Source: Bacilli bacterium
Lineage (GTDB): Bacteria; Bacillota_I; Bacilli_A; RFN20; CAG-826
Reading direction: 5' to 3'
NCBI GenBank assembly: GCA_041652475.1
Contig: JBAZHG010000003.1
Location: 4,656 to 68,655, forward strand
DNA: 64,000 bases
Program-made: the position numbers and the translations under genes
Notes under the pieces: generated by a model
What the model saw: only the letters and a program-made list of their open reading frames with translations
Told to the model about the DNA's origin: nothing
Databases searched by the model: none
Shown: one piece after another, positions 24,372 through 40,250 of the stretch
Position numbering within the stretch: the first letter of the stretch is position 1
Layout of the letters: each line of letters begins with the position of its first letter

Positions 24372-24400
24372 TTGACAATTAGGATTCATAAATCTATAAT
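24372..24400 (+). promoter_or_regulatory. Consensus sigma-A promoter (TTGACA-17-TATAAT) driving riboswitch 1
   Basis: TTGACA at 24372-24377 and TATAAT at 24395-24400, with a 17-nt spacer. Confidence 0.75.
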
Positions 24401-24413
24401 TTCAATTGTAAAA

Positions 24414-24480
24414 GGCAAAGTTAGAGCAATCTAGCGACGCAAAACTATAGGGCCTTGATCCAAAAAGGTAGCCAGTTGCC
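24414..24480 (+). promoter_or_regulatory. c-di-GMP-I (GEMM-I) riboswitch aptamer, copy 1
   Basis: GNRA-capped hairpin TAGA-GCAA-TCTA (24422-24433), then GCGACGCAAAACTATAGGGCC ... GGTAGCCAGTTGCC. This matches the conserved GACGCAAAGC / GGGxC / GGUAGC...GUUGCC cores of known GEMM-I aptamers such as Vc2 and C. difficile Cd1. Confidence 0.8.
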
Positions 24481-24505
24481 ATATTTTGGTCAATTGGCTT
24501 TTTTC
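24471..24505 (+). terminator. Intrinsic terminator whose 5' arm is the 3' strand of aptamer 1 (expression platform)
   Basis: gccagttg (24471-24478) pairs with caattggc (24491-24498), including one G-U pair. TTTTTT follows. Confidence 0.65.
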
Positions 24506-24524
24506 TTTAAATAAGGACGAACCG

Positions 24525-25430
24525 ATGAAAAGGAAGCAGAAACTCATGGTATTCTCGGCTTTGACCCTCGTGGCGACGATTACCGCGTTGACGAGCTTTT
24601 CTTTGGCTTGGTTCGAAAACAATTTGCCGATCGATAACACCCTCACACTCTCATCGGGCGAATCGGTCGCTGCGGTCGAGGGCTACCTTTATCAGCAGAA
24701 TCCCAACAACCAACAAACCCAGGACTTGCTGGGTTTCTATAAAAACCAAGGCAGTTATCTCAATGTGACCCGGACGCCGGACGCGACCGACGTCGGGGCC
24801 TTTGACATCACTTTCTCGGATTCGATCTTTTTGGATTTGAACCTTTTGAACACTTATTTGAACGAATTCGCCTTGAACGAATTGGCGTTTCCAACCTACT
24901 ACATCGAATTGCGGATCATCAAAGAGAACTTCGATGCCTACGCCAAGATGACGATGGAGTATGTCGGCATCCCGACCGCGGGTTCAAACGAACTTGACTA
25001 TTCGAGCGAATACCCGTTCACGTATCGCTCGATCATTGCCAGCAATAACGCCGTCGATTTATATGAATCGCCGCTGCCGTCATTTCTTGACGAAATCGCC
25101 GCCGAGGAACCGGTTCCTTTCTTCGCCAATAGCGGCGATCGGACTAACGGCATCCCGGTTTTCACCCTTGACGATCTTGACGGAGCTCCGGTCGATCCCG
25201 AGACGCCCGGCTTGGCCCCGCAGCTTTACGTGCAGGGATTCCCTTATACCTCGGGCACGACGGGGGAACTCCTCTTCACCAAATCGATCGTGTTTGAGAT
25301 CAAACTCGACGTTTTGCAATTTTTGGAATACTTAAGGACGCAACCCGACGCCATGAACAAATCGATTCGATTTGGCATATCCTTCCGGATTGACGTCATC
25401 TATTCGAACGATCCGGTCATGGAGAGCTGA
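24525..25430 (+). CDS. Secreted protein with a SipW-cognate (TasA/camelysin-type) signal peptide; locus protein A
   Basis: Start at MKRKQKL, with AAGGA 8 nt upstream. N-terminus ...VATITALTSFSLAWFENN. No other recognised domain. Confidence 0.7.
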   Translation: MKRKQKLMVFSALTLVATITALTSFSLAWFENNLPIDNTLTLSSGESVAAVEGYLYQQNPNNQQTQDLLGFYKNQGSYLNVTRTPDATDVGAFDITFSDSIFLDLNLLNTYLNEFALNELAFPTYYIELRIIKENFDAYAKMTMEYVGIPTAGSNELDYSSEYPFTYRSIIASNNAVDLYESPLPSFLDEIAAEEPVPFFANSGDRTNGIPVFTLDDLDGAPVDPETPGLAPQLYVQGFPYTSGTTGELLFTKSIVFEIKLDVLQFLEYLRTQPDAMNKSIRFGISFRIDVIYSNDPVMES

Positions 25431-25431
25431 A

Positions 25432-27834
25432 ATGAAAAAAAGCGGCATCGTTAAATTCGGTTTGATTTCCACCCTGCTCGCGGCTTCGGCCTCGGTCATC
25501 GCTTTTACCTATGCCGCCTATTTGAATTACGATAAGTACATCCATCCGCTGGATTTGAACACGACCGCCCTCTCGAGCCATTTCGCCGGCGGGACCGGCA
25601 TTGAGACGAGTCCCTACCTGATTGCCAACAGCACCCATTTGCGGAATCTGCAAAAACTGACCACGCTTGGGGTATTCCGCAGCAACGCGTTCTTCGCCGT
25701 CCAAGATAGTTTCACATGGGACAACACCGACGGAGCCTTGCTTCCGATTGGGACCGAAGACAATCCGTTCTACGGCACTTTCGACGGCCGCGGCCGCACG
25801 ATCACCAACCTGATAGTAAACGGGGCGAACACCAACGACGTCGGCATGTTTGGTTACGTGGCCATGGAAGGGCTCATCCGCAATCTCGTCTTGAGCGCCC
25901 CAACTATTTATGTGACGGAAAACAGCGGTGAGGCCGCCGACAAGACGCGGCGGACCATGAATCCGCTTGATGATTATCTACTCACCTACGCGCAAGCGTT
26001 GAATGACGTCGACCTCGTGTCTTCGACCAGTTCCTCGGCCACCTTCTTGGTGCCGGAAACGAGCGTTTCCATTTCACTAGGCGGTTCCGTCGAGGATTTC
26101 GACATCGTCTACGAATCGACCGATACCGATCTTTTGTTTGAAAGTTCCCCCGGTTACTGGACGACGGCGGCCACCCCGGGTTCGACCAATCCGACCACCG
26201 ATCTCTATCCGGTGCAGTTATCGGCCCGCATCTTCGCCATTTACGAAGCGAAAGTAATTTCCTATACCTTGGAACGTTGGCAAATCAACGTCAAGGGCAA
26301 CGGCACCGTCGTCGATGACGCCGAATCCATTTTCAAGACCGTCCACCCGGCCGAAGCCGACCATGAGACATATGTCGGCATCTTCGTCGGGCATCTCGAC
26401 GGAGGTGCTTCTTATCTTGGATTATGGGGCGGGAATACTGACAGCACGACCGCTAACGGCAAGATTGTCGTCAACGGGCGAGCCGCCCGCAGTTTCAACG
26501 TCTTGGTGGGCCGGTCCCGGACCGACAATCCGCTCGATGCCACCGCGGCCAATTACTATAACCGTTTCATCAACTTCAACGAGGTCCTCTATAACAACCC
26601 GGGCATGCGCACCACATTGTGGTCGATTCCCCAGACCCCGCTGAGATCCTCCTATTTGACTCAAGAATCCAACGCCATTTCGGCGACGCAATCCTATGGA
26701 TTGACCGCGGCTGAGGCTGCCTATTTCCGGATTTATCCGCGCATTCAAAACACGGCCACCACGTTCGATGCCGTCGAAGACAATGGCACAATTACAACCG
26801 GCAAACCCTATTCGGGTTATGGAATCCGTTTCCAGCACGCCTCTTCGGGAGGGACAATCACCACTGACGGACGGTTGGGGGCAAGCGTCCGTGCCACCTT
26901 GCAAAGCACCACGTATTTCCGCCGCAATTTCAACGTCTTGAACGGATTATGGCTCTGGTCGACCGACAAGATCAACTCGCGGGCCGAAGACGTTTTTGGT
27001 TTAAACGAATTCGAAGTGTCGATCAATATGTCCTACGTGGCGACCTCGACCTCCTTGAACAATAAATTCCAAATCTTGTGGAACACTTATAATCCCGACG
27101 CCGTCTACAAGTTTTTATGGTGGACTTGGGAAGCCAACAAGGTCCAAAACGAGGCTTGGGGCGATTTGTCGGCCCAAACCACCGTGGTCGACGGAGTGAC
27201 GGTTCCGATTTACAGTCCCAACAACCATCCGTTGATCACCCAATTGACGCCGACCCGGACTTCGAGCGGCGTGATTCAGGAAACCTCGATCAATTTCGTC
27301 GTCAATCGCGAGGACAACGGCTTCTGGGAGAACTTATTTGACTACATCTTATTGAATGAACCCTATTACCCGATGTTTGCCTTCGGAGTCGGCAAAAACG
27401 GCACTTATACCACCGACGCTTACGTCCAACAAAGCATCAGCGGCACGACTTACCGCTTCTATGACGGCCGCTACGCCGTCGACAATTACACCTTGGACAT
27501 CTTGAGCATCGAGCTCCTTTTCACCGCCCGGGAAGGAAACATCTCCAATTTGCTGAACAACGTCGATTTCCTGTACTCGCTTCCGACCTACACCAACAAT
27601 CCGGACGGATCGACCACGTTCTCGGCTTGGAACAAAGCCTCGAAGGTCAAGGTTCAATTCAACGTCGAAGATCCCGCGCTGAACCAAAGCGGCACCACCT
27701 ATCGCTTCTGGCGGGTGGCCGGTTTCAGCGGCGTCAACTCCTACGTCAACGGCGTTTACACGACCGGGACCAATTACGCTCCCTTCAATACAGTTGGATA
27801 TGACAACGCCACATTGACCCCTGGAGCCGCTTAA
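25432..27834 (+). CDS. Large (800 aa) secreted/surface protein with an adhesin-like beta-helix/GLUG-type N-terminal module; locus protein B
   Basis: Start at MKKSGIVKFG, one nt after the stop of A. Signal ...ASASVIAFTYAAYLNY. Then GTGIETSPYLIANSTHLRNL...LPIGTEDNPFYGTFDGRGRTITNLIV...VGMFGYV..IRNL, a signature common to GLUG/beta-helix surface proteins. Confidence 0.6.
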   Translation: MKKSGIVKFGLISTLLAASASVIAFTYAAYLNYDKYIHPLDLNTTALSSHFAGGTGIETSPYLIANSTHLRNLQKLTTLGVFRSNAFFAVQDSFTWDNTDGALLPIGTEDNPFYGTFDGRGRTITNLIVNGANTNDVGMFGYVAMEGLIRNLVLSAPTIYVTENSGEAADKTRRTMNPLDDYLLTYAQALNDVDLVSSTSSSATFLVPETSVSISLGGSVEDFDIVYESTDTDLLFESSPGYWTTAATPGSTNPTTDLYPVQLSARIFAIYEAKVISYTLERWQINVKGNGTVVDDAESIFKTVHPAEADHETYVGIFVGHLDGGASYLGLWGGNTDSTTANGKIVVNGRAARSFNVLVGRSRTDNPLDATAANYYNRFINFNEVLYNNPGMRTTLWSIPQTPLRSSYLTQESNAISATQSYGLTAAEAAYFRIYPRIQNTATTFDAVEDNGTITTGKPYSGYGIRFQHASSGGTITTDGRLGASVRATLQSTTYFRRNFNVLNGLWLWSTDKINSRAEDVFGLNEFEVSINMSYVATSTSLNNKFQILWNTYNPDAVYKFLWWTWEANKVQNEAWGDLSAQTTVVDGVTVPIYSPNNHPLITQLTPTRTSSGVIQETSINFVVNREDNGFWENLFDYILLNEPYYPMFAFGVGKNGTYTTDAYVQQSISGTTYRFYDGRYAVDNYTLDILSIELLFTAREGNISNLLNNVDFLYSLPTYTNNPDGSTTFSAWNKASKVKVQFNVEDPALNQSGTTYRFWRVAGFSGVNSYVNGVYTTGTNYAPFNTVGYDNATLTPGAA

Positions 27835-27847
27835 TGGCGGACTAATT

Positions 27848-28729
27848 ATGAGTATGAACACTTCTTTAAAAAGAAAAATCCAATTATTCGCGACGATGAT
27901 GTCGTTGTCGCTTTCGCTGACGTCTTTCCTATATTTAAGCTACGCCTGGTTCACGAGCCAACGGCTCCATCAAACCCACATCATGGAAATCACCACCGAG
28001 GGCGGCCTCGAATACGCCATCAAGTATTATGATGGCAATTACAACACCCGCGACATCACAACCGGAACCAACTCCGGTTATCAAAGCCCGGCATCGCTCG
28101 TCAATCCGCTCGATCGGCTGGGCGTCAGCGATTATGAGGCCGAGTTCGATTTGATCACCCCCGAAATGATCGCCCCCGAATCGACGTCCAACCCCCTCCT
28201 TGTCGTCGACATCTATCCCGGCATCCAATACACCTTTGCGGTCGAAGTCACCAGTCAACTGGCGATGGAGCGCAACGTCGAATTCATCCTCAAGGAATTC
28301 ACGGCCCTGGGCGCCAGCAACGCGCGCGACAGCACTTCCGGCGACCCGATTTCACTAAGCAGCGCCATCGACATTTACGCGACGGCGATCGACACCCAGG
28401 ATATGACCGCCGGACAAGTGACCGCGGCTGCCCACGCCTTCGTGCAGGACTTGGCTCCGGTCGACCTGTTCGATAACGACAGCCAGGGTGGTTTGGTCTA
28501 TATTCCGCTAGTCGAGGACACTTTGGCCCCGATTGAAGGAGAAGACGAAAACAAAATCGTATTTTTGTTCACAATCAAGTTCTCGGACAGCTCCGATTCC
28601 TTTTATCGCTGGGTCTCTTATTCAAGCGGGATCAACTACTACGAAAAGAGTCCGCTCGGCAACTCCAACGTCTATCAAGCCAAGTCGTTTACCATTAACG
28701 AATTTTTGGTCCACGTCAAGGAACAGTGA
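27848..28729 (+). CDS. Secreted protein with a SipW-cognate signal peptide; locus protein C
   Basis: N-terminus ...SLSLTSFLYLSYAWFTSQ. Acidic, Thr/Ser-rich, with no Cys. Confidence 0.7.
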   Translation: MSMNTSLKRKIQLFATMMSLSLSLTSFLYLSYAWFTSQRLHQTHIMEITTEGGLEYAIKYYDGNYNTRDITTGTNSGYQSPASLVNPLDRLGVSDYEAEFDLITPEMIAPESTSNPLLVVDIYPGIQYTFAVEVTSQLAMERNVEFILKEFTALGASNARDSTSGDPISLSSAIDIYATAIDTQDMTAGQVTAAAHAFVQDLAPVDLFDNDSQGGLVYIPLVEDTLAPIEGEDENKIVFLFTIKFSDSSDSFYRWVSYSSGINYYEKSPLGNSNVYQAKSFTINEFLVHVKEQ

Positions 28730-28877
28730 AAAAAATCGTTGATGATTTCACAATTTGAAGAAGCGAAAAAAACGCGTCAAAGACGATCTTATTCTTTATA
28801 AGAAACGTGCGTGGATTATGCGTGCACGAGGGCAAAAAGAGCCCTAAAATAATTTTGAAAAATCGTAATCAAAATAC

Positions 28878-28906
28878 TTGCATTCGAAAAAAGGCATGCT
28901 TATACT
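28878..28906 (+). promoter_or_regulatory. Sigma-A-type promoter (TTGCAT-17-TATACT) for protein D
   Basis: Hexamers at 28878-28883 and 28901-28906. They leave a structured 5' UTR of about 140 nt. Confidence 0.55.
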
Positions 28907-29054
28907 ATAGGTGCCAATACAACAACATTGCCCCCTCAATGATTGCATGTGATTAGCGAAATTGCCCGTTAATTCATTGGCTTGGACCCATTACCCAGGC
29001 CGTAAACTCTTCCGAAAAATCGGGAGGGAAATCCAGAGGAGGATTTTTGTCATT

Positions 29055-29933
29055 ATGAAGACCACCAATAAATTACTGCTCTCAGCTTCCGCGATGTTAG
29101 TCCTCAGCGCCGGCGCCATGGTCACCGGAACCGTTGCTTGGTTTACCGCTACCCGTCAAATCGATGTCAATTTCTCGAACGTCAAAGTCATGACGACCCA
29201 AGCTGATTTGGCCGTCGAACTTGTCGGCACCGCTTATACCGCCACTCCTTCGCAAGGCGTCCTGGACATCTCAGGTGTCGATAGCACCGCCACCGATATT
29301 TCCGGCGACGGCGTCAACTTCTACAAGCCCGTTTGGGACGTTGACGAAGGCGTCACCGCCCTTGCCATTGACGACGTTACCGATTTATCTACTTATGAAG
29401 GATATTACGTAGAATTCCAGTTGAAAATCTCCCGTCTCAATCCGACCCCTGAAAATGGTTTCATGGTTTACTTGGGTGAAAACACCGCCATTGAACCGAT
29501 GACCACTGGAGATGCAGACGTTGCCGCGGCTGATTCCGCCCGCGTCGCCATCCTTAACTCCGCCAAGACCACCCGCAAAATCGTGTGGACTCCCGATACC
29601 GACGATAGCACCTATCAATACCTGGACTCCGTCGTTAGCGAAGAAGCTTATGGAGTTGATGACTTCGATTTAGTGTCCTATCCGGCCGAATCTACAACTG
29701 TCGATGATTTCTTAGTTGGTGATTTTGTGAAGCACGATACAATTGTTTCTACCACTGGTCACTCAGGTGGTAACTCCCCAGTCATCGCCGACTTGTCCAA
29801 TCCGACAAATTTCGAAATCATTACCGTCCGCATTTGGATTGAAGGTACTGATGAAGATACGGAAGAGAATACCGCCAAAGAAGGACAATTCACCATTACT
29901 TTGGATCTCTACTCAATGGGATTCTCAATCTAA
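29055..29933 (+). CDS. Candidate major fibre subunit, TasA-like SipW substrate; locus protein D
   Basis: Start at MKTTNKLLL, with GGAGG 12 nt upstream. Signal ...SAGAMVTGTVAWFTATRQ. C-terminal motif VRIWIEGTDEDT. Monocistronic, sitting between its own promoter and a strong terminator. Confidence 0.7.
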   Translation: MKTTNKLLLSASAMLVLSAGAMVTGTVAWFTATRQIDVNFSNVKVMTTQADLAVELVGTAYTATPSQGVLDISGVDSTATDISGDGVNFYKPVWDVDEGVTALAIDDVTDLSTYEGYYVEFQLKISRLNPTPENGFMVYLGENTAIEPMTTGDADVAAADSARVAILNSAKTTRKIVWTPDTDDSTYQYLDSVVSEEAYGVDDFDLVSYPAESTTVDDFLVGDFVKHDTIVSTTGHSGGNSPVIADLSNPTNFEIITVRIWIEGTDEDTEENTAKEGQFTITLDLYSMGFSI

Positions 29934-29989
29934 CAATCGATAGCTTAACTGCAAAAAACATCTGATTTACTAGTCTGATAAATAGAAAA

Positions 29990-30113: not shown

Positions 30114-30512
30114 ATGGAAAATGCTAGCAATAAGCCTAATAAGCGCGTCATCAATCTTGTTTTGACGATTGTCGAAATCGTCGTCATCGCCGTCTTGCTG
30201 ACCATCTCCTTGGTGGCCATGTTCACTCTCGAATCGAATACGGCCCCGGCCAACTGGTTCATGAAGTTCATTTTCTTCCTCCAGACCCAGACCATCTGGT
30301 TCTTCATCCTGATCGTCTTGCCGTTGATCGCTTTCTTCCTTTTCAATGGTTATCTACTGTTCCGAGTGATTTATAACGAGAAGGCCTCCAAGCCGGCCCC
30401 CGTCGTCGAAACCGTCGACAAGCAAGCCATGATCGAGGAAGCCAAGCGCCAGCTGCGCGAAGAGCTCTTGAAAGAAATAAAGAGCAAAGAATCCGAGAAA
30501 CCGAGCGAATAA
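30114..30512 (+). CDS. Small membrane protein (2-3 TM) with a charged amphipathic C-terminal tail; locus protein E
   Basis: 132 aa. The tail EEAKRQLREELLKEIK resembles the SipW tail. Confidence 0.6.
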   Translation: MENASNKPNKRVINLVLTIVEIVVIAVLLTISLVAMFTLESNTAPANWFMKFIFFLQTQTIWFFILIVLPLIAFFLFNGYLLFRVIYNEKASKPAPVVETVDKQAMIEEAKRQLREELLKEIKSKESEKPSE

Positions 30513-30532
30513 AGTCCCTTAAGGGACTTTTT
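30511..30532 (+). terminator. Rho-independent terminator after protein E
   Basis: aagtccc-ttaa-gggactt hairpin followed by a T-run. Confidence 0.75.
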
Positions 30533-30563
30533 CTTAATGATGATATTTTTTCAATCAATTTTG

Positions 30564-30591
30564 TTGACATCGACAAGCAGATGATTATAAT
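30564..30591 (+). promoter_or_regulatory. Consensus sigma-A promoter (TTGACA-16-TATAAT) driving riboswitch 2
   Basis: TTGACA at 30564-30569 and TATAAT at 30586-30591. Confidence 0.75.
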
Positions 30592-30605
30592 TGTAGGTGG
30601 AAAAG

Positions 30606-30680
30606 AGCAAAACTAGGGAAACCTAGCGACGCAAAGCTAAAGGGCCTGTACTCGAATAGAGGGATGGTAGCCAGTTGCCT
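30606..30680 (+). promoter_or_regulatory. c-di-GMP-I (GEMM-I) riboswitch aptamer, copy 2
   Basis: Hairpin CTAGG-GAAA-CCTAG (30613-30626), then GCGACGCAAAGCTAAAGGGCC ... GGTAGCCAGTTGCC. The cores are identical to copy 1. Confidence 0.8.
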
Positions 30681-30716
30681 AACGCGGAATAAGAACCGAC
30701 TTATCCGATCCCGGGC

Positions 30717-30741
30717 AATGATTGGTTAACCATCGTTTTTT
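30717..30741 (+). terminator. Candidate intrinsic terminator in the riboswitch-2 leader
   Basis: aatgattgg-ttaa-ccatcgtt (one bulge) followed by TTTTTT. The upstream GGCAA..TGG can pair instead with the aptamer 3' strand CCAGTTGCC. Confidence 0.5.
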
Positions 30742-30837
30742 ATTCCAAGGGGCTTTCCAGGGACGAATTTTCGTTCCTATGGGAGGTTACCACAGGTGAT
30801 TTGGCCAGCGTCTATATTAATGGGATAGACCATGCTG

Positions 30838-30870
30838 AACACCGGTGGAAACGATTCTAGCGGTGTTTTT
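30838..30870 (+). terminator. Second terminator-like hairpin in the same leader
   Basis: Perfect 7-bp stem aacaccg/cggtgtt with a 16-nt loop, followed by TTTT. Confidence 0.4.
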
Positions 30871-30908
30871 AATTAACATCGCCGCTGTTGGAAGGAGGAT
30901 GGCTCGTA

Positions 30909-31772
30909 ATGACGTATACCGAAAAGTATGCAGCTAGAAGGCGTCGAAGAATTTTCGCCTCGTTCATGCTTCTGGTATCAACAATTGCGATCGTCACCTT
31001 TATCCTCATCGCCTACTTAGGCAACGAAGTCGGACGCTACACGATTCAACTCAAGAGCAACAATACCCAGCTCACGATGGATTACTCGCGCGACTTCACC
31101 CGACCGACCACGCTATTAAGAGCCGACAGCCTCGAAAAAGTCTATCCGATCATGGCCGACAGTTTGCCGGAAGATGACGAGATCGACAATCAGGCGGGTT
31201 CCCACAACGGGGAATATCGGGATCAATACGACGAATTTGTTTACTCCTTGTACTTCGCCTATACCTTCTTCGTGAAGAATACGGGCGACACCCCGGCCGA
31301 CTATCAAGTCTGGGTGCGGTTGAAAACCTCGACTTCCGGCAATGCCGATGAAATGTCGATCGATGAATACGTCCGGGTTCGCATCTACGAAAACAGCGAC
31401 AACGGGACGGGCGAAGCCCTGACCCACGACAGTCGCACGATGGCTAAACGAACCAATCAAATCATCTACGACGACGAGAATCAACCTGAATACCGCGAAT
31501 GCGTAGCCCGCACGAGCGAAGACTACCGGACGTGTACGGCGAATAAGACGATTAACGCCCAACGCGCCGAAGAATTCCTGAATGTCCAAGAAATCACGCG
31601 CTATGAAATAACCGGGTTCGCCCCGCAAGCCGTCATGCGCTACACGATCGTCGTTTGGCTTGAAGGCGACGACCCCGATTGCCGGGGTCAAATTCCGACG
31701 AACGCCTCATTGGAGTTCTCGATGGACATCTCCTCGTTCTCGGAAGACGAAAGTTCCTCGATATCTGAATGA
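30909..31772 (+). CDS. N-terminally anchored or SipW-processed paralogue; locus protein F
   Basis: Start at MTYTEK, with GGAGG 10 nt upstream. RRRRR followed by a TM ending IAYLGNE. FFVKNTGDTP is a TasA-like F-x-N-x-G strand. Also carries the VVWLEGDDPDC motif. Confidence 0.65.
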   Translation: MTYTEKYAARRRRRIFASFMLLVSTIAIVTFILIAYLGNEVGRYTIQLKSNNTQLTMDYSRDFTRPTTLLRADSLEKVYPIMADSLPEDDEIDNQAGSHNGEYRDQYDEFVYSLYFAYTFFVKNTGDTPADYQVWVRLKTSTSGNADEMSIDEYVRVRIYENSDNGTGEALTHDSRTMAKRTNQIIYDDENQPEYRECVARTSEDYRTCTANKTINAQRAEEFLNVQEITRYEITGFAPQAVMRYTIVVWLEGDDPDCRGQIPTNASLEFSMDISSFSEDESSSISE

Positions 31773-31800
31773 TATTTAAAATGAAAGGCAAAATGAATTT

Positions 31801-32949
31801 ATGAAAAACAACAAACGAATCGCTATCGCCGCCGCCACCTTTGGAATCGCCGCTTTAGCGATGGGAGGCAGCACCTTCGCCTGGTTCCAAGTGGCGAACA
31901 CTGCCAACTTAGCTCTTGAAGGGACCGTCGTCGGAGTTGACAACAATCTCGACGTTGGTTTTAAGACGACTAATCCGGTGGACGGATTTGCCGCTTTAGG
32001 TCTAGATTTTGACGGAGAATTGAGCACCGTCGTGGCGTCTCCGCTTGATCCCGAAGCGCCGGTTTACCCTGATGAGTACGAAGACTTCGTCTACTGGGCG
32101 CCCCACAGCGTCAACTCCGGCATCATGGCGGCCGTGATTGAAGCTTCCGGCTTCAACTCCAGCAATATCTTGAACACGATTACTTCGGGTTCGTTCGACC
32201 GCGACGCGGTCGTCGCCGAAGAAATCCTTCCTCTATACTTGCGTCCGGAATTCGATGCCAACCGCACCGAGCGCTACGTCGCTATCGACAGCGTCGCCCC
32301 GACGACCAGTTATGTCGGATTCTCGATTCTGTTCCGAGCCCTCGACGAAGAACTTGAAGGGGTGGAAACCGCCATCTACTTCGACGAAGGCACCCAAGTA
32401 GCCGCCAGCAAGAACGCCGTCGGCGCCCTGCGGGTCGGCTTTGACAACGGGATCCGTCCCGACATCATCAAACCGAGCGCCGTTGCGGCCGACTCGATTG
32501 CCGTTGGCGGCGTCATGGATCTCAATGGCGACGGTGCCAATGACTACACGCTCCAACAATACGACGAAGTGACGGCCTTGCCGCTTCCGCTTTACGAAGT
32601 CGCTTATGGCGAATTCGACGAAGTCCTCGTCAATGGGGATTGGGACGATGAAGCTGAAGATGCTGGCGTCACTCCGAGCCGGCTCAGCAATGACAAGTTC
32701 TACGAAGGCGAGACGGCTACGGGCGTCAACGCTTTCTTGTCCGGCGCCAAGGCCTTGACCGCCGATTTCAACACCTTTGCCGCCTACAGCGCGACCGGCA
32801 CCCCGATCGCGACCACTGATGACACGACCGGCATCGCCGAAGTCGACTTCATGATGTGGCTCGAAGGCTGGGATTTGGCCGCGGTCAATTCCATCTCCAA
32901 CGCCAAAGTCGGCGCGGCCCTGGCCTTCATCGCTCCGGATCTCTACTAA
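31801..32949 (+). CDS. TasA-like SipW substrate paralogue; locus protein G
   Basis: Signal ...AALAMGGSTFAWFQVANT. Motifs AIYFDEGTQV, ALRVGFDNG, MMWLEGWDLAAV. Confidence 0.7.
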   Translation: MKNNKRIAIAAATFGIAALAMGGSTFAWFQVANTANLALEGTVVGVDNNLDVGFKTTNPVDGFAALGLDFDGELSTVVASPLDPEAPVYPDEYEDFVYWAPHSVNSGIMAAVIEASGFNSSNILNTITSGSFDRDAVVAEEILPLYLRPEFDANRTERYVAIDSVAPTTSYVGFSILFRALDEELEGVETAIYFDEGTQVAASKNAVGALRVGFDNGIRPDIIKPSAVAADSIAVGGVMDLNGDGANDYTLQQYDEVTALPLPLYEVAYGEFDEVLVNGDWDDEAEDAGVTPSRLSNDKFYEGETATGVNAFLSGAKALTADFNTFAAYSATGTPIATTDDTTGIAEVDFMMWLEGWDLAAVNSISNAKVGAALAFIAPDLY

Positions 32950-33022
32950 TACTACTTTCTACCCGCTTTCATGATTGAAAGCCATCATAAATCATTTTAA
33001 ACATAACGAAGGGGGTGTGGCG

Positions 33023-34105
33023 ATGAACAGCCGTATTATTGAAAATGCCAAGCTTTCGCTCGCCACCCTCGCCTTCATAGCATCAGTCGGATCGCTGATC
33101 ATTGGCACGGTGGCGTGGTTTGCTTCTAGCAACTATCTCGAACTCGCCAACTTCAAAATCGCCATGGGCGAAGCCGAACAAGTGGAAATCGGACTGGTGG
33201 TTCCCGAAGGGAAACCCAATCTGGGCGAAGCCGAATCAATCGTCTATTACGAGACGGTCACCGACGAAATGCTCCTCAATCACGAATACTACCAGCCAGG
33301 GACGACCCTCAAAGCCGTTTCCAGCATGTTCCAGTCGCAATGGCTCTCCGAGGAAACCGACTTGACCGACCCGGATCTGTATCCGGTTCTGCGAAGCCAT
33401 TACCTCGCCAACCAATCGCGGACCGACAGCGTGGTGGCCCATAGCAACTTCTACCAATTCGAAATCTACATCCGATCGACCGTCCGCATCGACTTGTATC
33501 TGGACGAGGGCACCTATCTAATGGCCAATGAAACCAAGAACCAACAAGCCGCTTACAAATACGGTCTTGACGCGGCCAAACTGAACCAAGTCGACCAAGC
33601 GATGCGCGTCAGCTTTCTTACCCCCGAGCAATTCGCCATTTGGGAACCGAACACCGACGTGGTCGGCACGACCGAATTCGGCGGACGCCTCGACGTCTAT
33701 GACTACGACAACTACTTTGACTATGATTACGACACTAAGTTAGAATATATGTTTGGTGAGTATAACGCCGACGCCTATCTCGTCTATGACGAAAGCGCCC
33801 GAACCGTGGCTGTGACCGAATTCTCTTCTTTCGCGGCCAACACCGCCGAGGAAGCGATTCCGCTCAGCATTCCGATGTCGAAGCAAAACGGCCTCGTGAT
33901 CCAACGGGAATCGAGCGTGACCAAGCATTATCTGACCGATCAAACGAACCCCGATGCCGCTTTGATGCGCCTATATCCCAACGAACCGCAACGGATGGTC
34001 GTCACCGCCTACGCCGAAGGCTGGGATCGTGATACCACCAACGCCATCAACTTCGCCAACTTCTCGCTGAATCTCGTCTTCGGAGGCATTTACGCCCCCT
34101 TGTAA
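33023..34105 (+). CDS. TasA-like SipW substrate paralogue; locus protein H
   Basis: Start at MNSRIIEN, with GGGGGTG upstream. Signal ...GSLIIGTVAWFASSNY. Motifs DLYLDEGTYL, AMRVSFL, YAEGWDRDT. Confidence 0.7.
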   Translation: MNSRIIENAKLSLATLAFIASVGSLIIGTVAWFASSNYLELANFKIAMGEAEQVEIGLVVPEGKPNLGEAESIVYYETVTDEMLLNHEYYQPGTTLKAVSSMFQSQWLSEETDLTDPDLYPVLRSHYLANQSRTDSVVAHSNFYQFEIYIRSTVRIDLYLDEGTYLMANETKNQQAAYKYGLDAAKLNQVDQAMRVSFLTPEQFAIWEPNTDVVGTTEFGGRLDVYDYDNYFDYDYDTKLEYMFGEYNADAYLVYDESARTVAVTEFSSFAANTAEEAIPLSIPMSKQNGLVIQRESSVTKHYLTDQTNPDAALMRLYPNEPQRMVVTAYAEGWDRDTTNAINFANFSLNLVFGGIYAPL

Positions 34106-34132
34106 TCCTTAAAGATTGGAGTCCAATCGTCG

Positions 34133-35641
34133 ATGAGTGATTTCTTCCTTTACATCCGAATGATGTTCCAAGCCGTGTTTACCAACCTCGGGGCTTTTTT
34201 CAAGAAGGCCATCATCGATCCCTGGGGGACCGTGCCGACGCAATTCGTCTATTACAAGGATTATTTTGAAGAATACTCACCCGGATTTGGATTTTGGGGT
34301 TGGACCTTTTACATCCTCTTCCTATTGATAGTCTTAGCTTTTTTTGCCGCGTTGGTCTATCTATGCGTCCGATTGATCCGCCACTATGTGGCCAATTACG
34401 GATCCAAGGTCGAAAAAGCCAAGCTTATTGATCAAATCCAAAAGCTCAACTACGAATTGTTCATGGCCGTGAGCGAGAAAAACCGGCTCCTCAATTTGAA
34501 GATGGGTAACATCCCGATGCCGAAAGGCGAAGAAGACGAAGACCAAGAGGAAGACATCCGTTTCCCGAAGCTGATTGCCGTCGACCGCAAGTACGAGAAT
34601 TTGAACCTCACGATCGAAATCCCGGCCTCAGACGCGATCCCGCTCGACGAGATGGCGACCCGCTTCCGGGCCTTTGCCGCCTCGCAGCTCGGCCTCTATT
34701 ACGACATCGACCTGGTCCGGTTGATGTTCGCTGGCATGGGCACGACCAAAGTCATCATCCTGGAAGGTATCTCCGGCACCGGCAAAACTTCCTTTCCGTA
34801 CGCCCTTGGAAAATTCTTCCAAAACGACGCCCAGATTTGCTCGGTCCAGCCCTCGTGGCGCGACCGGAGCGAACTTTTGGGCTATTTTAACGAATTCACG
34901 AAGAAATTCAACGAAACCGACTTCTTGAAAGCGTTGTACGAAGCCTCGTGGCGCAAAGACAACAACATCATCGTCCTCGACGAAATGAACTTGGCTCGGA
35001 TCGAATACTATTTCGCCGAATTCCTCTCGATGATGGAAATGCCCGACTTCAGCGAATGGAAAATCGAGCTGATCAACAATCCGGACTCCGATGATCCCAA
35101 GAATCTCAACGAAGGCAAGCTTTTGATTCCCCAGAACGTCTGGTTCTTCGGCACGGCCAATAACGACGACTCGACTTTCTCGATCACCGACAAAGTCTAC
35201 GACCGGGCCGTCTCGATCACCTTCGAGCACATGGGCGAACCGTTCGACATCGAATTCAAGGAACCGGTCCTCATCACCTACGATTATATGAACGATTTGT
35301 TCGCCAAAGCGCGGACGAACTTCCCGATCAGCGCGAAGGCGCTCGAGAAATTCGACAAACTCGACGATTTGGTCTTGAGCAAGTTCAAAGTGGCCTTTGG
35401 AAACCGGACCATGAAGCAATTGAAAAGCTTCGCTCCGATCTACGTCGCCGCCGGAGGCACCGAGGTCGACGCCATCGACTTTATCTTCGCGACCAAGGTC
35501 TTGAAGAAGTTCGAAACCTTGAACGTCGCCTTCCTGCGGAACGAGCTCAAAGAGCTCCTGTCGGAAATCGACAAGCTCTTCGGCAAATCGGCCTTCCAGA
35601 AATCCAAGGCGTTCATCAATAACCTGATCAAGATGGGATAA
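34133..35641 (+). CDS. Membrane-anchored McrB-family (AAA_5) AAA+ NTPase; locus protein I
   Basis: One TM (WTFYILFLLIVLAFFAALVYLCV), then a coiled coil. Walker A GISGTGKTS, SVQPSWRDRSELLGYF, Walker B IIVLDEMNLARIEYYFAEFLSMME, and FFGTANNDDSTFSITDKVYDRA. These are all McrB-family hallmarks. Confidence 0.75.
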   Translation: MSDFFLYIRMMFQAVFTNLGAFFKKAIIDPWGTVPTQFVYYKDYFEEYSPGFGFWGWTFYILFLLIVLAFFAALVYLCVRLIRHYVANYGSKVEKAKLIDQIQKLNYELFMAVSEKNRLLNLKMGNIPMPKGEEDEDQEEDIRFPKLIAVDRKYENLNLTIEIPASDAIPLDEMATRFRAFAASQLGLYYDIDLVRLMFAGMGTTKVIILEGISGTGKTSFPYALGKFFQNDAQICSVQPSWRDRSELLGYFNEFTKKFNETDFLKALYEASWRKDNNIIVLDEMNLARIEYYFAEFLSMMEMPDFSEWKIELINNPDSDDPKNLNEGKLLIPQNVWFFGTANNDDSTFSITDKVYDRAVSITFEHMGEPFDIEFKEPVLITYDYMNDLFAKARTNFPISAKALEKFDKLDDLVLSKFKVAFGNRTMKQLKSFAPIYVAAGGTEVDAIDFIFATKVLKKFETLNVAFLRNELKELLSEIDKLFGKSAFQKSKAFINNLIKMG

Positions 35642-35644
35642 ACC

Positions 35645-37159
35645 ATGAAAAAGCCCGAATCGACAATTAAAAAACTGCAAACCAAATATTCCTCGCGGTT
35701 TTTGAAGTTGTTCAAAACCAACGCCGAATTCCAGCAATTCGTCGATTTGATTCGGAATTCCAAAGGAAACGTCTTCTCGTCGTTAGCCCGGGTCGAAACC
35801 CGCAAGTTCGACGAGGAATGGATCAAAGAGGTGGAAGCCGGCGTCGTCGCCATCGAGAACATCATCATCAACCCGAAACGGTTCATCAAGTTCCAATCGG
35901 AAGTAGTTCCGATCGAGATGGCCAAGAAGACCGGATCGGAGAGCATCCGCCACCTGGCCATGAATTCCCAGTTCATCAAGAAAATCGACGACAAGGGCAA
36001 CGTCATGCCCGAGAAGATCTTGAACATCTCCACCGATGACGAGCTGGCCATTTACGAAAACCGGTTCGTGGTCACCTTGATCCGCAAGTTGGTCCGCTTC
36101 ATCGAACTGCGCTACGACTATATCCAAAAGAAAGCCGAAATCCGCGATAGCGATTTGCTCTTCATGAAGAGCAGCCTCGAGATCGAAGGCGCCGTCTATG
36201 AATACGAAGGTAAGCTCCGTTTGTCAATCCCGTCGGCCGAAGGCGGCCAAAAGGACGCTAACGACGAACTTTTGAAGCGGATCACCGAAGTGCGGCAACG
36301 GGTCATCTTCATGCTTTCGTCCGAATTCATGAAAACGCTCAAAAACGCCATCCCGGTCACCAACCCGATCCAGATGACCAACATCATGAAGAAGAACCTC
36401 GACTACATCAAGGCTCATGACCTGTGGAAGTTCCTGGACCGCTACGACCAATTGGGCGTCACTTTCCAAATCAAGGAAACGACCAACCAGTTCAACGAGA
36501 ACAACTTAAAAGACATATACGCGCACATCGGCGCCTCGCTATTGATGGTCAACACCGACAAGACCAAGAAGATCAAGGTACCGAAAGACCAAATCAAACG
36601 CCACAAGATCATGCCGCGTTTCGAAAACCCGATCCTGGACAAGGACTTGACCGACGAGCGCTTCCAAGTGTTCGATAGCGGCCGCAAGGTCAGCGTCAAA
36701 ACCTTGACCCCGGCCCAGGAAGCGGCCTTGAAGAAACGCCGAGAATTAGCCGAAAAGAAACGTCAAATCAAACAAGCGCTGCTAGCTAAGAAGAAAAAAC
36801 GCGATCAGGAACGCAAAGAACGCGAAAAAGAACGCCAACGCCAGCTCGAAATCGAACGCAAAGAAAAAGCCGAAACCCGGCGCCTGGCCGCCGTCGAAAA
36901 GGAACGCCTGGCGAAAATCGCCGCCGAGGAACGGGCTCAAACCTTGGCTCTTGAAAAAGCCGAACGCGAATCGTTGAAGAAAATACTCGACGAAGAAAAA
37001 CGCCGCTTGGCCGAAGCCCGCCGCCATGTCAAAGCCATCGCCGCCGCGCAACGGAAAAGCGAAGAACCGCAACCGGCGGTCGCCGAAAACCCCGCCTCCG
37101 AGAATATCCCCGAGGATAATCCGGAACCGGCCGAAGCAATCACCGACATCACCCAGTAG
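35645..37159 (+). CDS. McrC/DUF2357-like N-terminal domain protein without a recognisable nuclease motif, with a long Lys/Glu/Arg coiled-coil tail; locus protein J
   Basis: Starts 3 nt after I. Has ..SIRHLAMNSQF..IYENRFVVTLIRKL.., as in McrC-like partners, but I found no D-x(n)-(D/E)-x-K block. The last 150 aa or so are a KKRRELAEKKRQ...EKERLAKIAAEERA charged helix. Confidence 0.5.
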   Translation: MKKPESTIKKLQTKYSSRFLKLFKTNAEFQQFVDLIRNSKGNVFSSLARVETRKFDEEWIKEVEAGVVAIENIIINPKRFIKFQSEVVPIEMAKKTGSESIRHLAMNSQFIKKIDDKGNVMPEKILNISTDDELAIYENRFVVTLIRKLVRFIELRYDYIQKKAEIRDSDLLFMKSSLEIEGAVYEYEGKLRLSIPSAEGGQKDANDELLKRITEVRQRVIFMLSSEFMKTLKNAIPVTNPIQMTNIMKKNLDYIKAHDLWKFLDRYDQLGVTFQIKETTNQFNENNLKDIYAHIGASLLMVNTDKTKKIKVPKDQIKRHKIMPRFENPILDKDLTDERFQVFDSGRKVSVKTLTPAQEAALKKRRELAEKKRQIKQALLAKKKKRDQERKEREKERQRQLEIERKEKAETRRLAAVEKERLAKIAAEERAQTLALEKAERESLKKILDEEKRRLAEARRHVKAIAAAQRKSEEPQPAVAENPASENIPEDNPEPAEAITDITQ

Positions 37160-37173
37160 AAGGAGCGCCGCCC

Positions 37174-37917
37174 ATGACCAAGGAAAACAAAAAAGCCAAG
37201 AGCATTGGATCGAAAATCGTATCATGGATTTTCGGGACTTTGATCGTGGCCATGCTGGCCTTTGAAGGCTATGGGCTCATCAGTTCACGAAGCAACCACG
37301 GAGTTCCGAATTTCTTCGGCTATCAATTCCTGGTCATCCAAACCGATTCGATGGACCTCGGCCCCGACACCTATCCGGTCGACATGGGCATCGTTGTCAA
37401 AAAAGTGGATCCCTCCACCTTGGTGGCCTCAACCGAGACCTCGGCTCACGACGGCGACGTGATTACGTTCTACCGTCGGTTGGATGGACGCGTGGTCACC
37501 CATCGCATCATTGAAATCGACGAAAACGCCTCCGGCTTGGTGTTTGTCTGCCTCGGCGACAACCTTGATGCCGAAACCTGCCCCGCCGGCGGTTGCAGCG
37601 AATCGAACGCCGACCGCATTCCCGAAGCCGACGTGATGGGCAAAGTCGTCAACAAGTCGGCCGCCCTTGGCACCGCCTATCGCTTCTTGTCGAATCCGGC
37701 CACGATGCTCTTGCTCGTATTGATTCCCCTGGCGATTCTCGTGGTCCTGTCGGCCATCGATTTCGTCAAAGCCTTGAAAATGAAGCAAGCTCCCGCCCCG
37801 GTGGGAGCGCCGATACTGACAAAAGAAGACATGGAAGCCATCAAAGAGGAGGCCCGCCGCTCGCTTTTAGAAGAATTAAAGGCGGCCCCCAAGGAGGATG
37901 AAACCAGTGAAAAATGA
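37174..37917 (+). CDS. sipW: Signal peptidase I, SipW (ER/archaeal) type
   Basis: GAAGGAG upstream. FFGYQFLVIQTDSM (catalytic Ser), GDVITF, VTHRII (catalytic His), GDN, a C-terminal TM and a charged tail. Collinear with B. subtilis SipW. Confidence 0.85.
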   Translation: MTKENKKAKSIGSKIVSWIFGTLIVAMLAFEGYGLISSRSNHGVPNFFGYQFLVIQTDSMDLGPDTYPVDMGIVVKKVDPSTLVASTETSAHDGDVITFYRRLDGRVVTHRIIEIDENASGLVFVCLGDNLDAETCPAGGCSESNADRIPEADVMGKVVNKSAALGTAYRFLSNPATMLLLVLIPLAILVVLSAIDFVKALKMKQAPAPVGAPILTKEDMEAIKEEARRSLLEELKAAPKEDETSEK

Positions 37918-39478
37918 AGAAAAACGATTAAAACACCGGTTTTTTGCCATTCAATTTGACATCCCGATTGCGATATTGGGGGCGAGTTTGATCGCCATCA
38001 TCGTCGTGGCGAGCGTCATCATGGACAATGGCGTCACCGACGGGCTCTTGACCGCCGAATTGCAGACGACCTTGATGACCTTCGGGGCCTTGATTGTCGC
38101 CATCATGGTGGCGCTGGCCTTCGTTGGCACCTTCCGGAGCAAATTCATTCACGGCCGCCGCTTGAACGAAGACATTTTCGCCACCGATCGCGGCGTCTTC
38201 AGCGAGAAGATGTTCGTCGATTCGATTTCAAAACGGGTCGGCCGCTACAACGGCCAGGCGGCCATCATCGCCTTCTCGATTTTCGAATTGAAGAAAATCG
38301 TCTTGAACATGTTCGGCTACCGGATGGTGGCCAAGATCGCCGGCTCGATTTCGAGCACGCTCATCAACCGCTACCAAGGCAAAGAGCATCGCGACATCGT
38401 CTATGGCTTCGACTACAACGAAAACTTCCTGTTGTTCCTGCCTTTCAGCAAGGGTCCCGACGAGGTGGCCGAGGAAATCAACAAGCTTAACGAAGAAATC
38501 CAAACGATGATCTTCAAGAACGGCTTGAACATGGACATCAACATCTTCTACGGCGTGTACATTCACAACAACCCGAACCTCAACAGTTACGAAATGATCC
38601 GGCGCGCCTTGATTGCCGCCGATTTCGGCATCCGCAACAAGATCAAGACCAACCAATTCGAAGAATACATGCTCGACGCCAACCAAACCGACCTCGTGCT
38701 GTCCAACGAATTGTCGGCGGCCATCGAACGCAAGGAACTCGAAATTTTCTACCAGCCGAAATTCGACATTAAATTGAACCGGTTCTTCGGAGCCGAGGCC
38801 CTGATCCGGTGGAACCACCCGACCCGCGGCCTTTTGTATCCGTCGTCGTTCATCCCCTTTGCCGAACGCAGCGACCTCATCACCCGGATTGACCGCTACG
38901 TCATCCGTCAGGTGATGGAAGACATCGCCTACTGGAAGGACAATTCGAAACGGCTCTTGACGGTGTCCATCAACTTATCGCGCCGCAGCCTTTATCAAAG
39001 CGATTTGATGGATTACGTCAACCAAACCATCAAGGAGACGCGGGCCAACCCGCTTTTGATGGAATTCGAATTGACCGAATCGACCGCTTCGCGCGACCTG
39101 TTGTTCGTCTCGGCGATGATGAAGCGATTCAAGAACATCGGCATCAAAGTCTCGATCGACGACTTCGGGACCGGCTATTCGTCCTTGAGCTACCTGAAGA
39201 AGATGCCCTTCGACACCATGAAAATCGACAAATCGTTCTTCGACGACATCGAAGTCGACAAGAAAGCCCGCGACGTCGTCAAAGCGATGATCGACGTGGC
39301 CTTGGCCCTCAACGTCTACGTGGTGGCTGAGGGCGTCCAGACCGCCAAGCAAGTCGCCCTCCTCAAACAGATGGGCTGCCACGCCATCCAAGGCTTCTAT
39401 TATTCGCACTCGCTGGCGCGTGACAAATACGAGCAATTCCTGCAAAATAATAAATTCGAGGGGGATAAAGCACCATGA
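37907..39478 (+). CDS. Membrane-bound EAL-domain c-di-GMP phosphodiesterase with a degenerate GGDEF domain
   Basis: Two TM segments. The GGDEF position reads FDYNENF. The EAL domain is intact: GAEALIRW, SINLS, ELTES, DDFGTGYSS, KIDKSF, EGVQ, QGFY. GTG at 37907 has the best SD spacing (GGAGG at 37893-37897); the ATG at 37898 is an alternative. Confidence 0.85.
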   Translation: MKNEEKRLKHRFFAIQFDIPIAILGASLIAIIVVASVIMDNGVTDGLLTAELQTTLMTFGALIVAIMVALAFVGTFRSKFIHGRRLNEDIFATDRGVFSEKMFVDSISKRVGRYNGQAAIIAFSIFELKKIVLNMFGYRMVAKIAGSISSTLINRYQGKEHRDIVYGFDYNENFLLFLPFSKGPDEVAEEINKLNEEIQTMIFKNGLNMDINIFYGVYIHNNPNLNSYEMIRRALIAADFGIRNKIKTNQFEEYMLDANQTDLVLSNELSAAIERKELEIFYQPKFDIKLNRFFGAEALIRWNHPTRGLLYPSSFIPFAERSDLITRIDRYVIRQVMEDIAYWKDNSKRLLTVSINLSRRSLYQSDLMDYVNQTIKETRANPLLMEFELTESTASRDLLFVSAMMKRFKNIGIKVSIDDFGTGYSSLSYLKKMPFDTMKIDKSFFDDIEVDKKARDVVKAMIDVALALNVYVVAEGVQTAKQVALLKQMGCHAIQGFYYSHSLARDKYEQFLQNNKFEGDKAP

Positions 39479-40209
39479 TCCTGATCCTTGGCTCCAACGA
39501 AGACGACATTCTTTATTTCATCAACCGCATGAACGTCGCCGGCATCGAGGAAATCGGCAGCCGCGTCAAAGTATACACGGGCGATTTCGCCCGGCAGCAA
39601 GTCGTGGTCACCTATACCGGAACCACGATGATGATGGCTTCGATGATCGCCGGGATGATGATTCAAAAATACCGGCCCTACCTCGTCGTCAACGTCGGAA
39701 GTGCCCACTCGATCCATCCCAAACTGAAACAAGGCGACCTCTTCCTGGCCGAGCGGGTTTACCTCAGCCACGTCGACCAGACGCCTTTAAACAGCAAAAT
39801 CAAATTCGGGCAGTTGCCCAGCGGGGCGATGTTCACCCACTCGGAAGACATGTGTCTGAACATCATCGAAATGCACAACAACCGCGAAGCCAACAAGACG
39901 ATCGTCCGCGGCTTCATCCTTAGTTCCAACCTTTTGATCACCAATCTTGAGGAAGCCAAGGACCTCGTCAAGAAGTACTACCAGCCTTTGAGCGAGATGA
40001 TCGCCATGGATACCGAAGTCGGCGGCATCGCCGTCGCCTGCCAATTCTACGACGTCCCGATCGTCTGCCTCAAAGCGATTACCTATGAAATCGGCAACAA
40101 GGAGCAATTCCTCTCCCGGGAACGCATCGGCGTCGAGATGACGCCCATCGTCGGCAACTTGATCGGACACCTCTTTCTGGAGTTGGCCAGCCAAGAACCG
40201 GTGCAATAA
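39475..40209 (+). CDS. PNP_UDP_1-family protein, MTA/SAH-nucleosidase-like but divergent
   Basis: ATGA overlap with the EAL gene. LILGSNEDD, VVNVGSAHS and AMDTEVGGIAVAC align by eye to MtnN. The (S/T)D catalytic Asp position reads ITYE. Confidence 0.55.
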   Translation: MILILGSNEDDILYFINRMNVAGIEEIGSRVKVYTGDFARQQVVVTYTGTTMMMASMIAGMMIQKYRPYLVVNVGSAHSIHPKLKQGDLFLAERVYLSHVDQTPLNSKIKFGQLPSGAMFTHSEDMCLNIIEMHNNREANKTIVRGFILSSNLLITNLEEAKDLVKKYYQPLSEMIAMDTEVGGIAVACQFYDVPIVCLKAITYEIGNKEQFLSRERIGVEMTPIVGNLIGHLFLELASQEPVQ

Positions 40210-40219
40210 TATGTCAAAG

Positions 40220-40250
40220 ACGCCCGCGCCACCGTCGCGGGCGTTTGCTT
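40220..40250 (+). terminator. Rho-independent terminator ending the riboswitch-2 operon
   Basis: 9-bp GC-rich stem acgcccgcg/cgcgggcgt followed by TTTGCTTT. Confidence 0.75.

Follow-up and report, generated by a model that had tools for sequence, protein, structure and literature searches.

Loci of the TasA superfamily (TasA, CalY, BsaA, AbpA, AbpX, TafE, CanA) have been described as consisting of a dedicated signal peptidase I together with accessory, tip, minor and anchor genes, sometimes near enzymes of cyclic dimeric guanosine monophosphate (c-di-GMP), in an account that mentions neither an ATPase nor a riboswitch (bioRxiv 10.64898/2026.01.04.697558). Bell et al. (eLife 2024, PMC11090510) reported a large clade of McrB proteins that carry an FtsB-like transmembrane (TM) segment and a coiled coil as a fusion; they noted its association with McrC and a signal peptidase, independently called it pilus-assembly-linked and named it CoCoPALM; the clade is given three sentences there, with its analysis deferred to a later paper. 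In the literature searched, we found neither that follow-up nor any paper that connects SipW or c-di-GMP riboswitches to Acholeplasma. Here, we describe a locus of ~16 kb (positions 24372-40250) in a 64,000-nucleotide stretch of DNA from a Bacilli bacterium, hereafter the window (positions 4,656-68,655 of contig JBAZHG010000003.1, assembly GCA_041652475.1), and compare it with both groups. Against the characterized systems the locus is a new variant; as a member of CoCoPALM, its anatomy is laid out for the first time.

The account that we favor, and consider probable though far from certain, is that the locus encodes a surface-filament or adhesin assembly system of the CoCoPALM type, switched on by c-di-GMP, processed by a SipW-type peptidase and equipped with an McrBC-derived NTPase module. 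Its genes are arranged in two operons, A-B-C (24525-28729) and F-G-H-I-J-sipW-EAL-PNP-like (30909-40209), with genes D and E outside both and a terminator (30511-30530) after E; the genes, their promoters, aptamers and leader terminators are all on the plus strand. The map of open reading frames (ORFs) bears out the positions that an earlier note, made from the sequence of this DNA, had given for the genes with N-terminal signals and for those of the SipW-type peptidase, the McrB-like AAA+ protein, its DUF2357 partner, the EAL protein and the nucleosidase-like protein.

In Clostridioides difficile, pilA1 and CD2831 are controlled by c-di-GMP riboswitches; the ON cases are class II, and the structures concerned are type IV pili or sortase-anchored adhesins. 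The locus in the window resembles these cases in that a c-di-GMP riboswitch would turn on a surface adhesion structure at high c-di-GMP, whereas it differs in using class I aptamers as ON switches, on a SipW/McrBC-linked system. It also differs from tapA-sipW-tasA of Bacillus subtilis, where control is by SinR or transcription factors. Each operon is headed by a sigma-70 promoter that matches the consensus at 12 of 12 positions (TTGACA-17-TATAAT at 24372-24400 and TTGACA-16-TATAAT at 30564-30591), and 4-5 nucleotides (nt) after each promoter starts a c-di-GMP-I (GEMM-I) aptamer, at 24404-24483 (RF01051, 64.1 bits, E 3.2e-10) and 30596-30682 (63.9 bits). Both aptamers span model positions 1-87 of 87 and lie well over the RF01051 gathering score of 35 bits, in agreement with the two promoters and two GEMM-I elements proposed before. 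In both leaders, the conserved 3′ strand of the aptamer (AGCCAGUUGCC) is also the 5′ arm of a terminator in the minimum-energy fold: in the first (24470-24508), a hairpin of -15.9 kcal/mol followed by the U tract UUUUUCUU, and in the second (30663-30744), a hairpin of -28.6 kcal/mol followed by GUUUUUUA. Because aptamer and terminator share this strand, a ligand-stabilized aptamer would exclude the terminator, and both riboswitches are therefore predicted to be terminator-type ON switches that place both operons under c-di-GMP gating.

This design recurs in the family. A covariance model built from 12 aptamers and run on 83 related loci found 64 aptamers, 63 of them on the operon strand, and among the 34 loci having at least 7 kb of upstream sequence an aptamer lies 2.2-7.9 kb upstream of the I gene in 32. 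The shared-strand terminator was present in 50 of the 56 related aptamers tested, as against 28 of 150 random segments (19%). The gating of both operons by c-di-GMP, as the earlier note had it, is supported by these results, with the ON direction added and the design conserved across the family. Several further leader elements were observed. In the F leader, at 30839-30871, ACACCGGUGG...CUAGCGGUGU forms another hairpin that, with its U tract, looks like a terminator; it lies ~95 nt past the riboswitch terminator and 40 nt before the F start and may be a second attenuation step. Gene D has its own putative promoter and a ~150-nt leader within 28730-29054, for which Rfam gave no match even at E up to 1, so that no further riboswitch was found there. 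Tandem c-di-GMP-I aptamers, two or three per operon and ~40-60 nt apart, occur in the related loci L042 (2003-2222), L051 (6012-6200), L053 (127-440) and L061 (6150-6335), and in L082 (5204-6189) aptamers lie ~840 nt apart upstream of one operon.

The secreted proteins of the locus share a characteristic N-terminus. A (24525-25430; S-L-A-W-F), C (27848-28729; S-Y-A-W-F), the monocistronic D (29055-29933; T-V-A-W-F), G (31801-32949; T-F-A-W-F) and H (33023-34105; T-V-A-W-F) have a basic n-region and an h-region of 15-20 residues and moderate hydrophobicity that ends in A-W-F. The signal of B (25432-27834), an 800-amino-acid (aa) secreted protein and candidate adhesin encoded next to A, reads T-Y-A-A-Y-L. 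F (30909-31772) is different: its segment, with I-A-Y-L-G, has a Kyte-Doolittle value of 2.6 vs 1.6-2.1 for the other signals and forms a strongly hydrophobic signal anchor; its cytoplasmic tail is rich in R, and the topology is N-in/C-out (K/R 4.2 ahead of the TM segment vs 1.2 behind it). Of the seven TasA/camelysin-style N-termini claimed in the earlier note, those of A, C, D, G and H (in A-W-F) and of B (in A-A-Y-L) thus stand, whereas F is a signal-anchored protein rather than a SipW-type signal protein and becomes the candidate membrane anchor or base. Over 163 ORFs in related loci the signal consensus is T (75%), A (94%) and W (100%), followed by F or Y (T-x-A-W-F/Y), in the same register as T-W-A↓A-F of TasA, whose signal part is that of UniProt P54507. 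The N-terminus of mature TasA, AFNDIK, was checked against PDB 8AUR. By analogy, the signals of A, C, D, G and H would be cleaved between A and W, and the consensus supports the idea of several paralogous peptidase substrates with a TasA-like T-x-A↓x-F motif.

Pairwise BLAST among the secreted proteins finds weak similarity only; in profile comparisons, an N-terminal region is common to D, G and H (94-97%) and a C-terminal W-x-E-G-x-D strand to D, F, G and H (90-96%), and the paralogues G and H are homologous over their full length (hhalign probability 99.9%, 311 columns). D is all-beta, and its conserved motifs are TDISGDG..F.KP, R163 and W-x-E-G-x-D; H has a C-terminal Y-A-E-G-W-D motif and F a C-terminal W-L-E-G-D-D-P-D-C motif, and FLG..G.FT is the motif of the F family. 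Over 136 members of the subunit family, R163, E263 and G264 (D numbering) hardly vary. A search of all window proteins against Pfam and NCBIfam gave no match for A-H. For D, a word-indexed search found 36 homologues and an exhaustive profile search 4783 representative clusters (50% identity, E up to 1e-3): the D subunit family is large, fast-evolving and without Pfam coverage. In four related loci, two or three divergent D-type genes stand side by side (L006 4651-6478, L024 1-2163, L034 4800-7037, L075 5147-7000), as might be expected if the major subunit diversifies antigenically or functionally. The A-B-C accessory module is present in few loci, there too behind its own aptamer. L001, L006 and L035 have homologues of A, as does L003, where the end of the locus truncates it. 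The B homologue of L001 has A- and C-type genes on either side, and those of L006 and L035 lie downstream of the PNP-like gene; B itself has no Pfam or NCBIfam family and no PDB relative in a profile search. Type IV pilins were considered for the secreted proteins and rejected, as the locus has no prepilin peptidase and the hydrophobic segment precedes the conserved motif.

The signal peptidase encoded in the second operon, sipW (37174-37917), is a probable SipW/ER-type (endoplasmic reticulum-type) signal peptidase I with two TM segments. It matches NF046067 at E 2.8e-15 (56 bits vs a cut-off of 190) and TIGR02228 at 33.6 vs 51.85 bits, and keeps the S-M, H-R and G-x-N motifs, which are conserved in 71 of 89 locus homologues; though under the NCBIfam cut-offs, it is recognizably of the SipW/archaeal type, and the assignment of a dedicated SipW-type peptidase is supported. 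In 29 loci a second SipW copy with its catalytic motifs retained lies directly upstream of I, a position that is empty in the window. Gene E (30114-30512) encodes a small protein with TM segments at residues 16-34 and 61-79 that resembles the C-terminal TM segment and charged tail of SipW (BLAST E 4e-5), and is present in 46 loci. A probable ER/archaeal-type signal peptidase I in the operon is one feature that the locus has in common with tapA-sipW-tasA and the TasA superfamily; further ones are signals ending in T-x-A↓x-F, a predicted beta-sandwich subunit with candidate accessory, anchor and tip genes, and a link to a biofilm second messenger. The differences are that sequence-level membership is absent and fold similarity marginal and confined to F, that five to seven paralogues stand here in place of one major subunit plus TapA, and that an McrBC-derived NTPase pair is added, a component absent from every TasA-type locus described.

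This pair is formed by I (34133-35641) and J (35645-37159). I is an McrB-type AAA+ NTPase: an AAA_5 match was obtained with Pfam in all 19 homologues searched, and Escherichia coli McrB is its only relative in the PDB (6hz4, E 1.9e-5). It has a Walker A motif (GisGtGKT), a Walker B motif (DElNlA, i.e. DE-x-N-x-A) and an invariant N343-N-D-D346 that aligns to N-T-A-D of McrB and allows two readings, NxD plus a further D, or NxxD. No DNA-binding domain was detected in I; the N-terminal place is taken by a 60-aa outside segment and a TM segment (residues 61-79), followed by a heptad-like segment (84-130) that would form a cytoplasmic coiled coil, in an N-out/C-in topology (K/R 0.37 before the TM segment vs 4.58 after). 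Residues 1-60 (34133-34315), predicted to be extracellular, are aromatic-rich, with F5, P30, W31, Y41, F52, G53, G56 and W57 invariant in the 19 homologues; the conservation of this segment suggests a conserved partner outside the cell. Residues 1-352 of J match DUF2357 (PF09823), the N-domain of McrC, at 28.3 bits vs a cut-off of 23.3, a match that the full-length query missed and that appeared after removal of the charged tail; 31 of 32 homologues match too. For J, Pfam gave no nuclease family, the invariant columns showed no conserved D/E-x-K, and its profile found no relative in the PDB. The tail (36680-37159) is about 50% K/R/E, with residues 345-470 a helix of 50% K/R/E, like a single charged alpha-helix, and J ranges in total length from 460 to ~2300 aa between loci (L009, L026 and L046 among them), as if the tail acts as a spacer of adjustable length. 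The AAA_5 and DUF2357 matches and the single TM segment of I support the membrane-tethered McrB-like NTPase with a partner that had been proposed, and I-J is best described as a predicted nuclease-less McrBC-like NTPase complex on the cytoplasmic face of the membrane.

Compared with the type IV restriction system McrBC of E. coli, the AAA+ core of I aligns over Walker A, Walker B and the N-x-x-D signature, and the partner has DUF2357; in contrast, a DNA-binding domain and a PD-(D/E)xK nuclease were not detected, and the pair sits in a fixed operon with secreted proteins. The I-J-sipW core fits the description of CoCoPALM: an McrB-like GTPase with a TM segment and coiled coil joined to its N-terminus, an McrC/DUF2357 partner with a coiled-coil-like tail, constant genes of the signal-peptidase family and a predicted link to pilus assembly. 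However, the FtsB homology reported by Bell et al. was not recovered with Pfam here, the 19 I homologues giving no FtsB/DivIC match among the families listed at E up to 1. The novelty claimed in the earlier note has to be narrowed. The association of McrB, McrC and a signal peptidase was already named in 2024, while the account of Bell et al. has neither the c-di-GMP-I ON riboswitches, the subunit superfamily with T-x-A-W-F/Y and W-x-E-G-x-D, the F anchor, the EAL and nucleosidase-like genes, nor the concentration in Acholeplasma-, Izemoplasma- and RFN20-like Bacilli.

The gene set is conserved as a unit, a point that the earlier note had proposed to check. In 34 loci with at least 6 kb of upstream sequence, an F-like gene is present in 32, ORFs with T-x-A-W-F/Y in 31 (mean 2.3 per locus) and a [WYF]xEG C-terminus in all 34; J and SipW are each found in all 31 loci with enough downstream flank to be scored, and J in 80 of the 83 related loci. 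The I gene occurs in at least 592 GTDB species, among them metagenome-assembled genomes of Bacilli, Acholeplasma, Paracholeplasma, Anaeroplasmataceae, Izemoplasmatales, Enteromonas/Enterosoma and Onthovivens; the hosts are mostly uncultured, Mollicutes-like Bacilli. It has >8000 homologue clusters, of which the best 120 are 52-92% identical over the full length, with 52-63% identity among the related Bacilli lineages listed.

The second operon closes with the EAL and PNP-like genes. EAL (37898-39478) encodes a membrane EAL phosphodiesterase, and a match to PF00563 at 1.9e-71 confirms the predicted EAL gene inside a regulated operon; a GGDEF domain, which the earlier note had listed for checking, was not detected. 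Aligned to MorA (4rnh), the protein has EAL-R, N, ELTE, DDFGTGYSS, K, E and Q all present, and the sole change is the second Glu of EGVE, which is Gln. An inactive EAL receptor was considered and rejected: by the numbering of RocR and TBD1265, a K-to-E spacing of 36 residues makes the first Glu of EGVQ, which is conserved, the catalytic one. With all catalytic motifs present, the enzyme is probably active. The last gene, PNP-like (39475-40209), encodes a protein of the PNP_UDP_1 type resembling 5′-methylthioadenosine/S-adenosylhomocysteine (MTA/SAH) nucleosidases (TIGR01704, 76.2 bits vs a cut-off of 73.8). Its active site is altered relative to the MTA/SAH nucleosidase of Staphylococcus aureus: Asp replaces the catalytic Glu (Glu12), Glu together with a one-residue insertion replaces Asp197, Thr replaces Met173 and Leu replaces Phe151. 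In the related loci the EAL gene gave 46 hits and the PNP-like gene 34, always after the EAL gene (34 loci); both lie downstream in RFN20-type loci, while Acholeplasma- and Izemoplasma-type loci have EAL genes upstream of F instead. A GGDEF-EAL protein of ~1,010-1,060 aa is encoded just past the PNP-like gene in many loci (L002 17829-21005, with equivalents in L011, L016, L021, L022, L036, L037, L039 and L044), directly after it in most and with a 572-aa ORF in between in L002 and L003. In its place, the window has a GNAT acetyltransferase gene (40279-40824), which may be transcribed with the operon, since strong intrinsic termination is first predicted past the GNAT gene, at 40834-40861 (plus strand). 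The neighbors of the locus are housekeeping genes and its GC content matches that of the surrounding genome; a horizontally acquired island was rejected on the latter ground.

Together, these parts suggest the following mechanism. High c-di-GMP would stabilize both GEMM-I aptamers and block the overlapping terminators, allowing transcription into A-B-C and F-G-H-I-J-sipW-EAL-PNP-like. A, C, D, G, H and probably B would be exported by Sec, as their motifs and synteny suggest, and the dedicated SipW-type peptidase would cut after the invariant Ala of T-x-A↓W-F/Y. F, as the N-in/C-out membrane-anchored paralogue, would form the base in mostly wall-less hosts, with G and H as minor or adaptor subunits, A-B-C as an accessory adhesin module and D as the candidate major subunit, given its own promoter, fast divergence and multiple copies elsewhere. 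The subunits would share a beta-sandwich with the C-terminal W-x-E-G-x-D strand and probably polymerize like TasA-superfamily filaments, while I-J would couple nucleotide hydrolysis to filament assembly, anchoring or turnover. Finally, the co-transcribed EAL enzyme, likely an active phosphodiesterase by its motifs, would lower c-di-GMP and thereby likely exert negative feedback on the system. Filament function and the role of the GTPase are what we infer from this arrangement. Going one step further, wall-less Bacilli may have turned an McrBC-derived GTPase hexamer into a transmembrane engine or gatekeeper for extracellular filaments of an unrecognized class, with c-di-GMP riboswitches acting as the direct ON control of the whole machine. 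Such an NTPase-coupled route to a pilus would differ from the type IV, chaperone-usher, sortase and curli pathways and from the passive assembly of TasA-type filaments, and we put it forward only tentatively, expecting that it could well prove wrong.

Several results weigh against a filament system of this kind. The Peptidase_M73/TasA hidden Markov model (HMM) matched none of 136 homologues of D, G, H, F, A and C at E up to 0.1, no consistent Pfam family emerged, and no window protein matched Peptidase_M73 at E 0.01. TIGR04088 stayed below its 19-bit cut-off (13 bits, E 0.09, for the D N-terminus) and was weak in 3 of the 136 members (best E 0.021); with no HMM match at threshold among these homologues, the first proposal, that the subunits belong to the TasA/camelysin family (Peptidase_M73) or to the signal class of TIGR04088, is not supported. 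Alignment of the D and F profiles with TasA by hhalign was insignificant. The AlphaFold2 model of D (pLDDT 81, pTM 0.81) had no PDB match in Foldseek (best E 0.035, TM-score 0.23 or less), and the D profile found no relative among PDB sequences. A TasA-like match was thus not seen for the D model and is marginal for F, whose model (pLDDT 82.5), searched against 350,542 chains, had three TasA-superfamily filaments in its top 15: AbpA (7UEG, E 2.6e-3), the TasA fiber (8AUR, E 5.1e-3, probability 0.90, TM-score 0.28/0.33) and CanA (9HDI, E 1.4e-2). As all of these F matches lie above E 1e-3 with TM-scores of 0.33 or less, they point to a possible, very distant jelly-roll relationship on the level of predicted models, not to membership. 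In addition, I matches the PADLOC candidate defense model PDC-M26A (E 9.6e-40), and NTPases related to I occur in candidate defense islands. Known TasA-type filaments need no NTPase, which leaves I-J unexplained, and polymerization, cleavage and surface location are themselves steps that we infer.

These results leave some room for paralogues that do not polymerize at all, but act as individual, c-di-GMP-induced surface or coat proteins and adhesins, F-anchored or released, while the NTPase I-J would regulate their export or turnover or exercise quality control over it. The D model without a significant filament-subunit match and the marginal F match speak for this alternative, and the subunits, large (290-380 aa), highly divergent and present in several D copies per locus elsewhere, are reminiscent of variable surface antigens. 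We nevertheless consider it unlikely: all paralogues have in common the invariant T-x-A-W-F/Y N-terminus and the conserved W-x-E-G-x-D C-terminal strand, which suggests a shared assembly interface rather than independent adhesins, and the conserved layout of anchor, minor subunits and peptidase mirrors that of known filament loci.

Rather less probable still is a machine tied to the envelope or to cell division in wall-less Bacilli, in which the FtsB-like TM segment and coiled coil of I and the charged helix of J organize the membrane or cytoskeleton, and the secreted proteins serve as a scaffold for shape or cohesion. The conservation of I, at 52-63% identity among the Bacilli lineages listed and in at least 592 species, is like that of a core gene, the variable length of J would suit a spacer or ruler, and an FtsB homology of the N-terminal fusion has been reported (PMC11090510). 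Yet the Pfam search of the 19 I homologues described above did not recover FtsB or DivIC, and c-di-GMP ON control with an EAL feedback gene fits facultative adhesion or biofilm formation better than housekeeping. The weak similarity of the nucleosidase-like protein to the N-domain of Spiroplasma Fib, at about 3e-7 (3.2e-7), is far exceeded by its match to MTA/SAH nucleosidases (5e-24). An McrBC-type anti-phage defense module merely located inside an operon of unrelated secreted proteins, to which the PDC-M26A match, the McrB relationship of I and the McrC N-domain of J could point, is very improbable and was rejected for strict synteny, since I-J stays with F/G/H and SipW in 31-34 of 34 loci and in several orders, which argues against a defense role, while I is membrane-anchored, lacks (with J) any detected nuclease or DNA-binding domain, and shows an identity among the lineages listed that is unlike that of patchy defense islands; the GC content, too, is that of the surrounding genome.

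If the c-di-GMP-induced, SipW-processed assembly system that we favor is correct, a single conserved and as yet unseen surface structure would be common to thousands of Mollicutes-like Bacilli from gut, rumen and environment, nearly all of them uncultured, and these lineages would gain a concrete output of c-di-GMP signaling. A large family without Pfam coverage (the 4783 D clusters) would join the known bacterial surface-filament proteins. The three-sentence mention of CoCoPALM would be turned into a defined parts list with testable predictions on signal cleavage, the ON switch, the anchor protein and feedback by the phosphodiesterase, and the locus would offer an experimentally tractable case of a restriction-type McrBC GTPase repurposed for the cell envelope.

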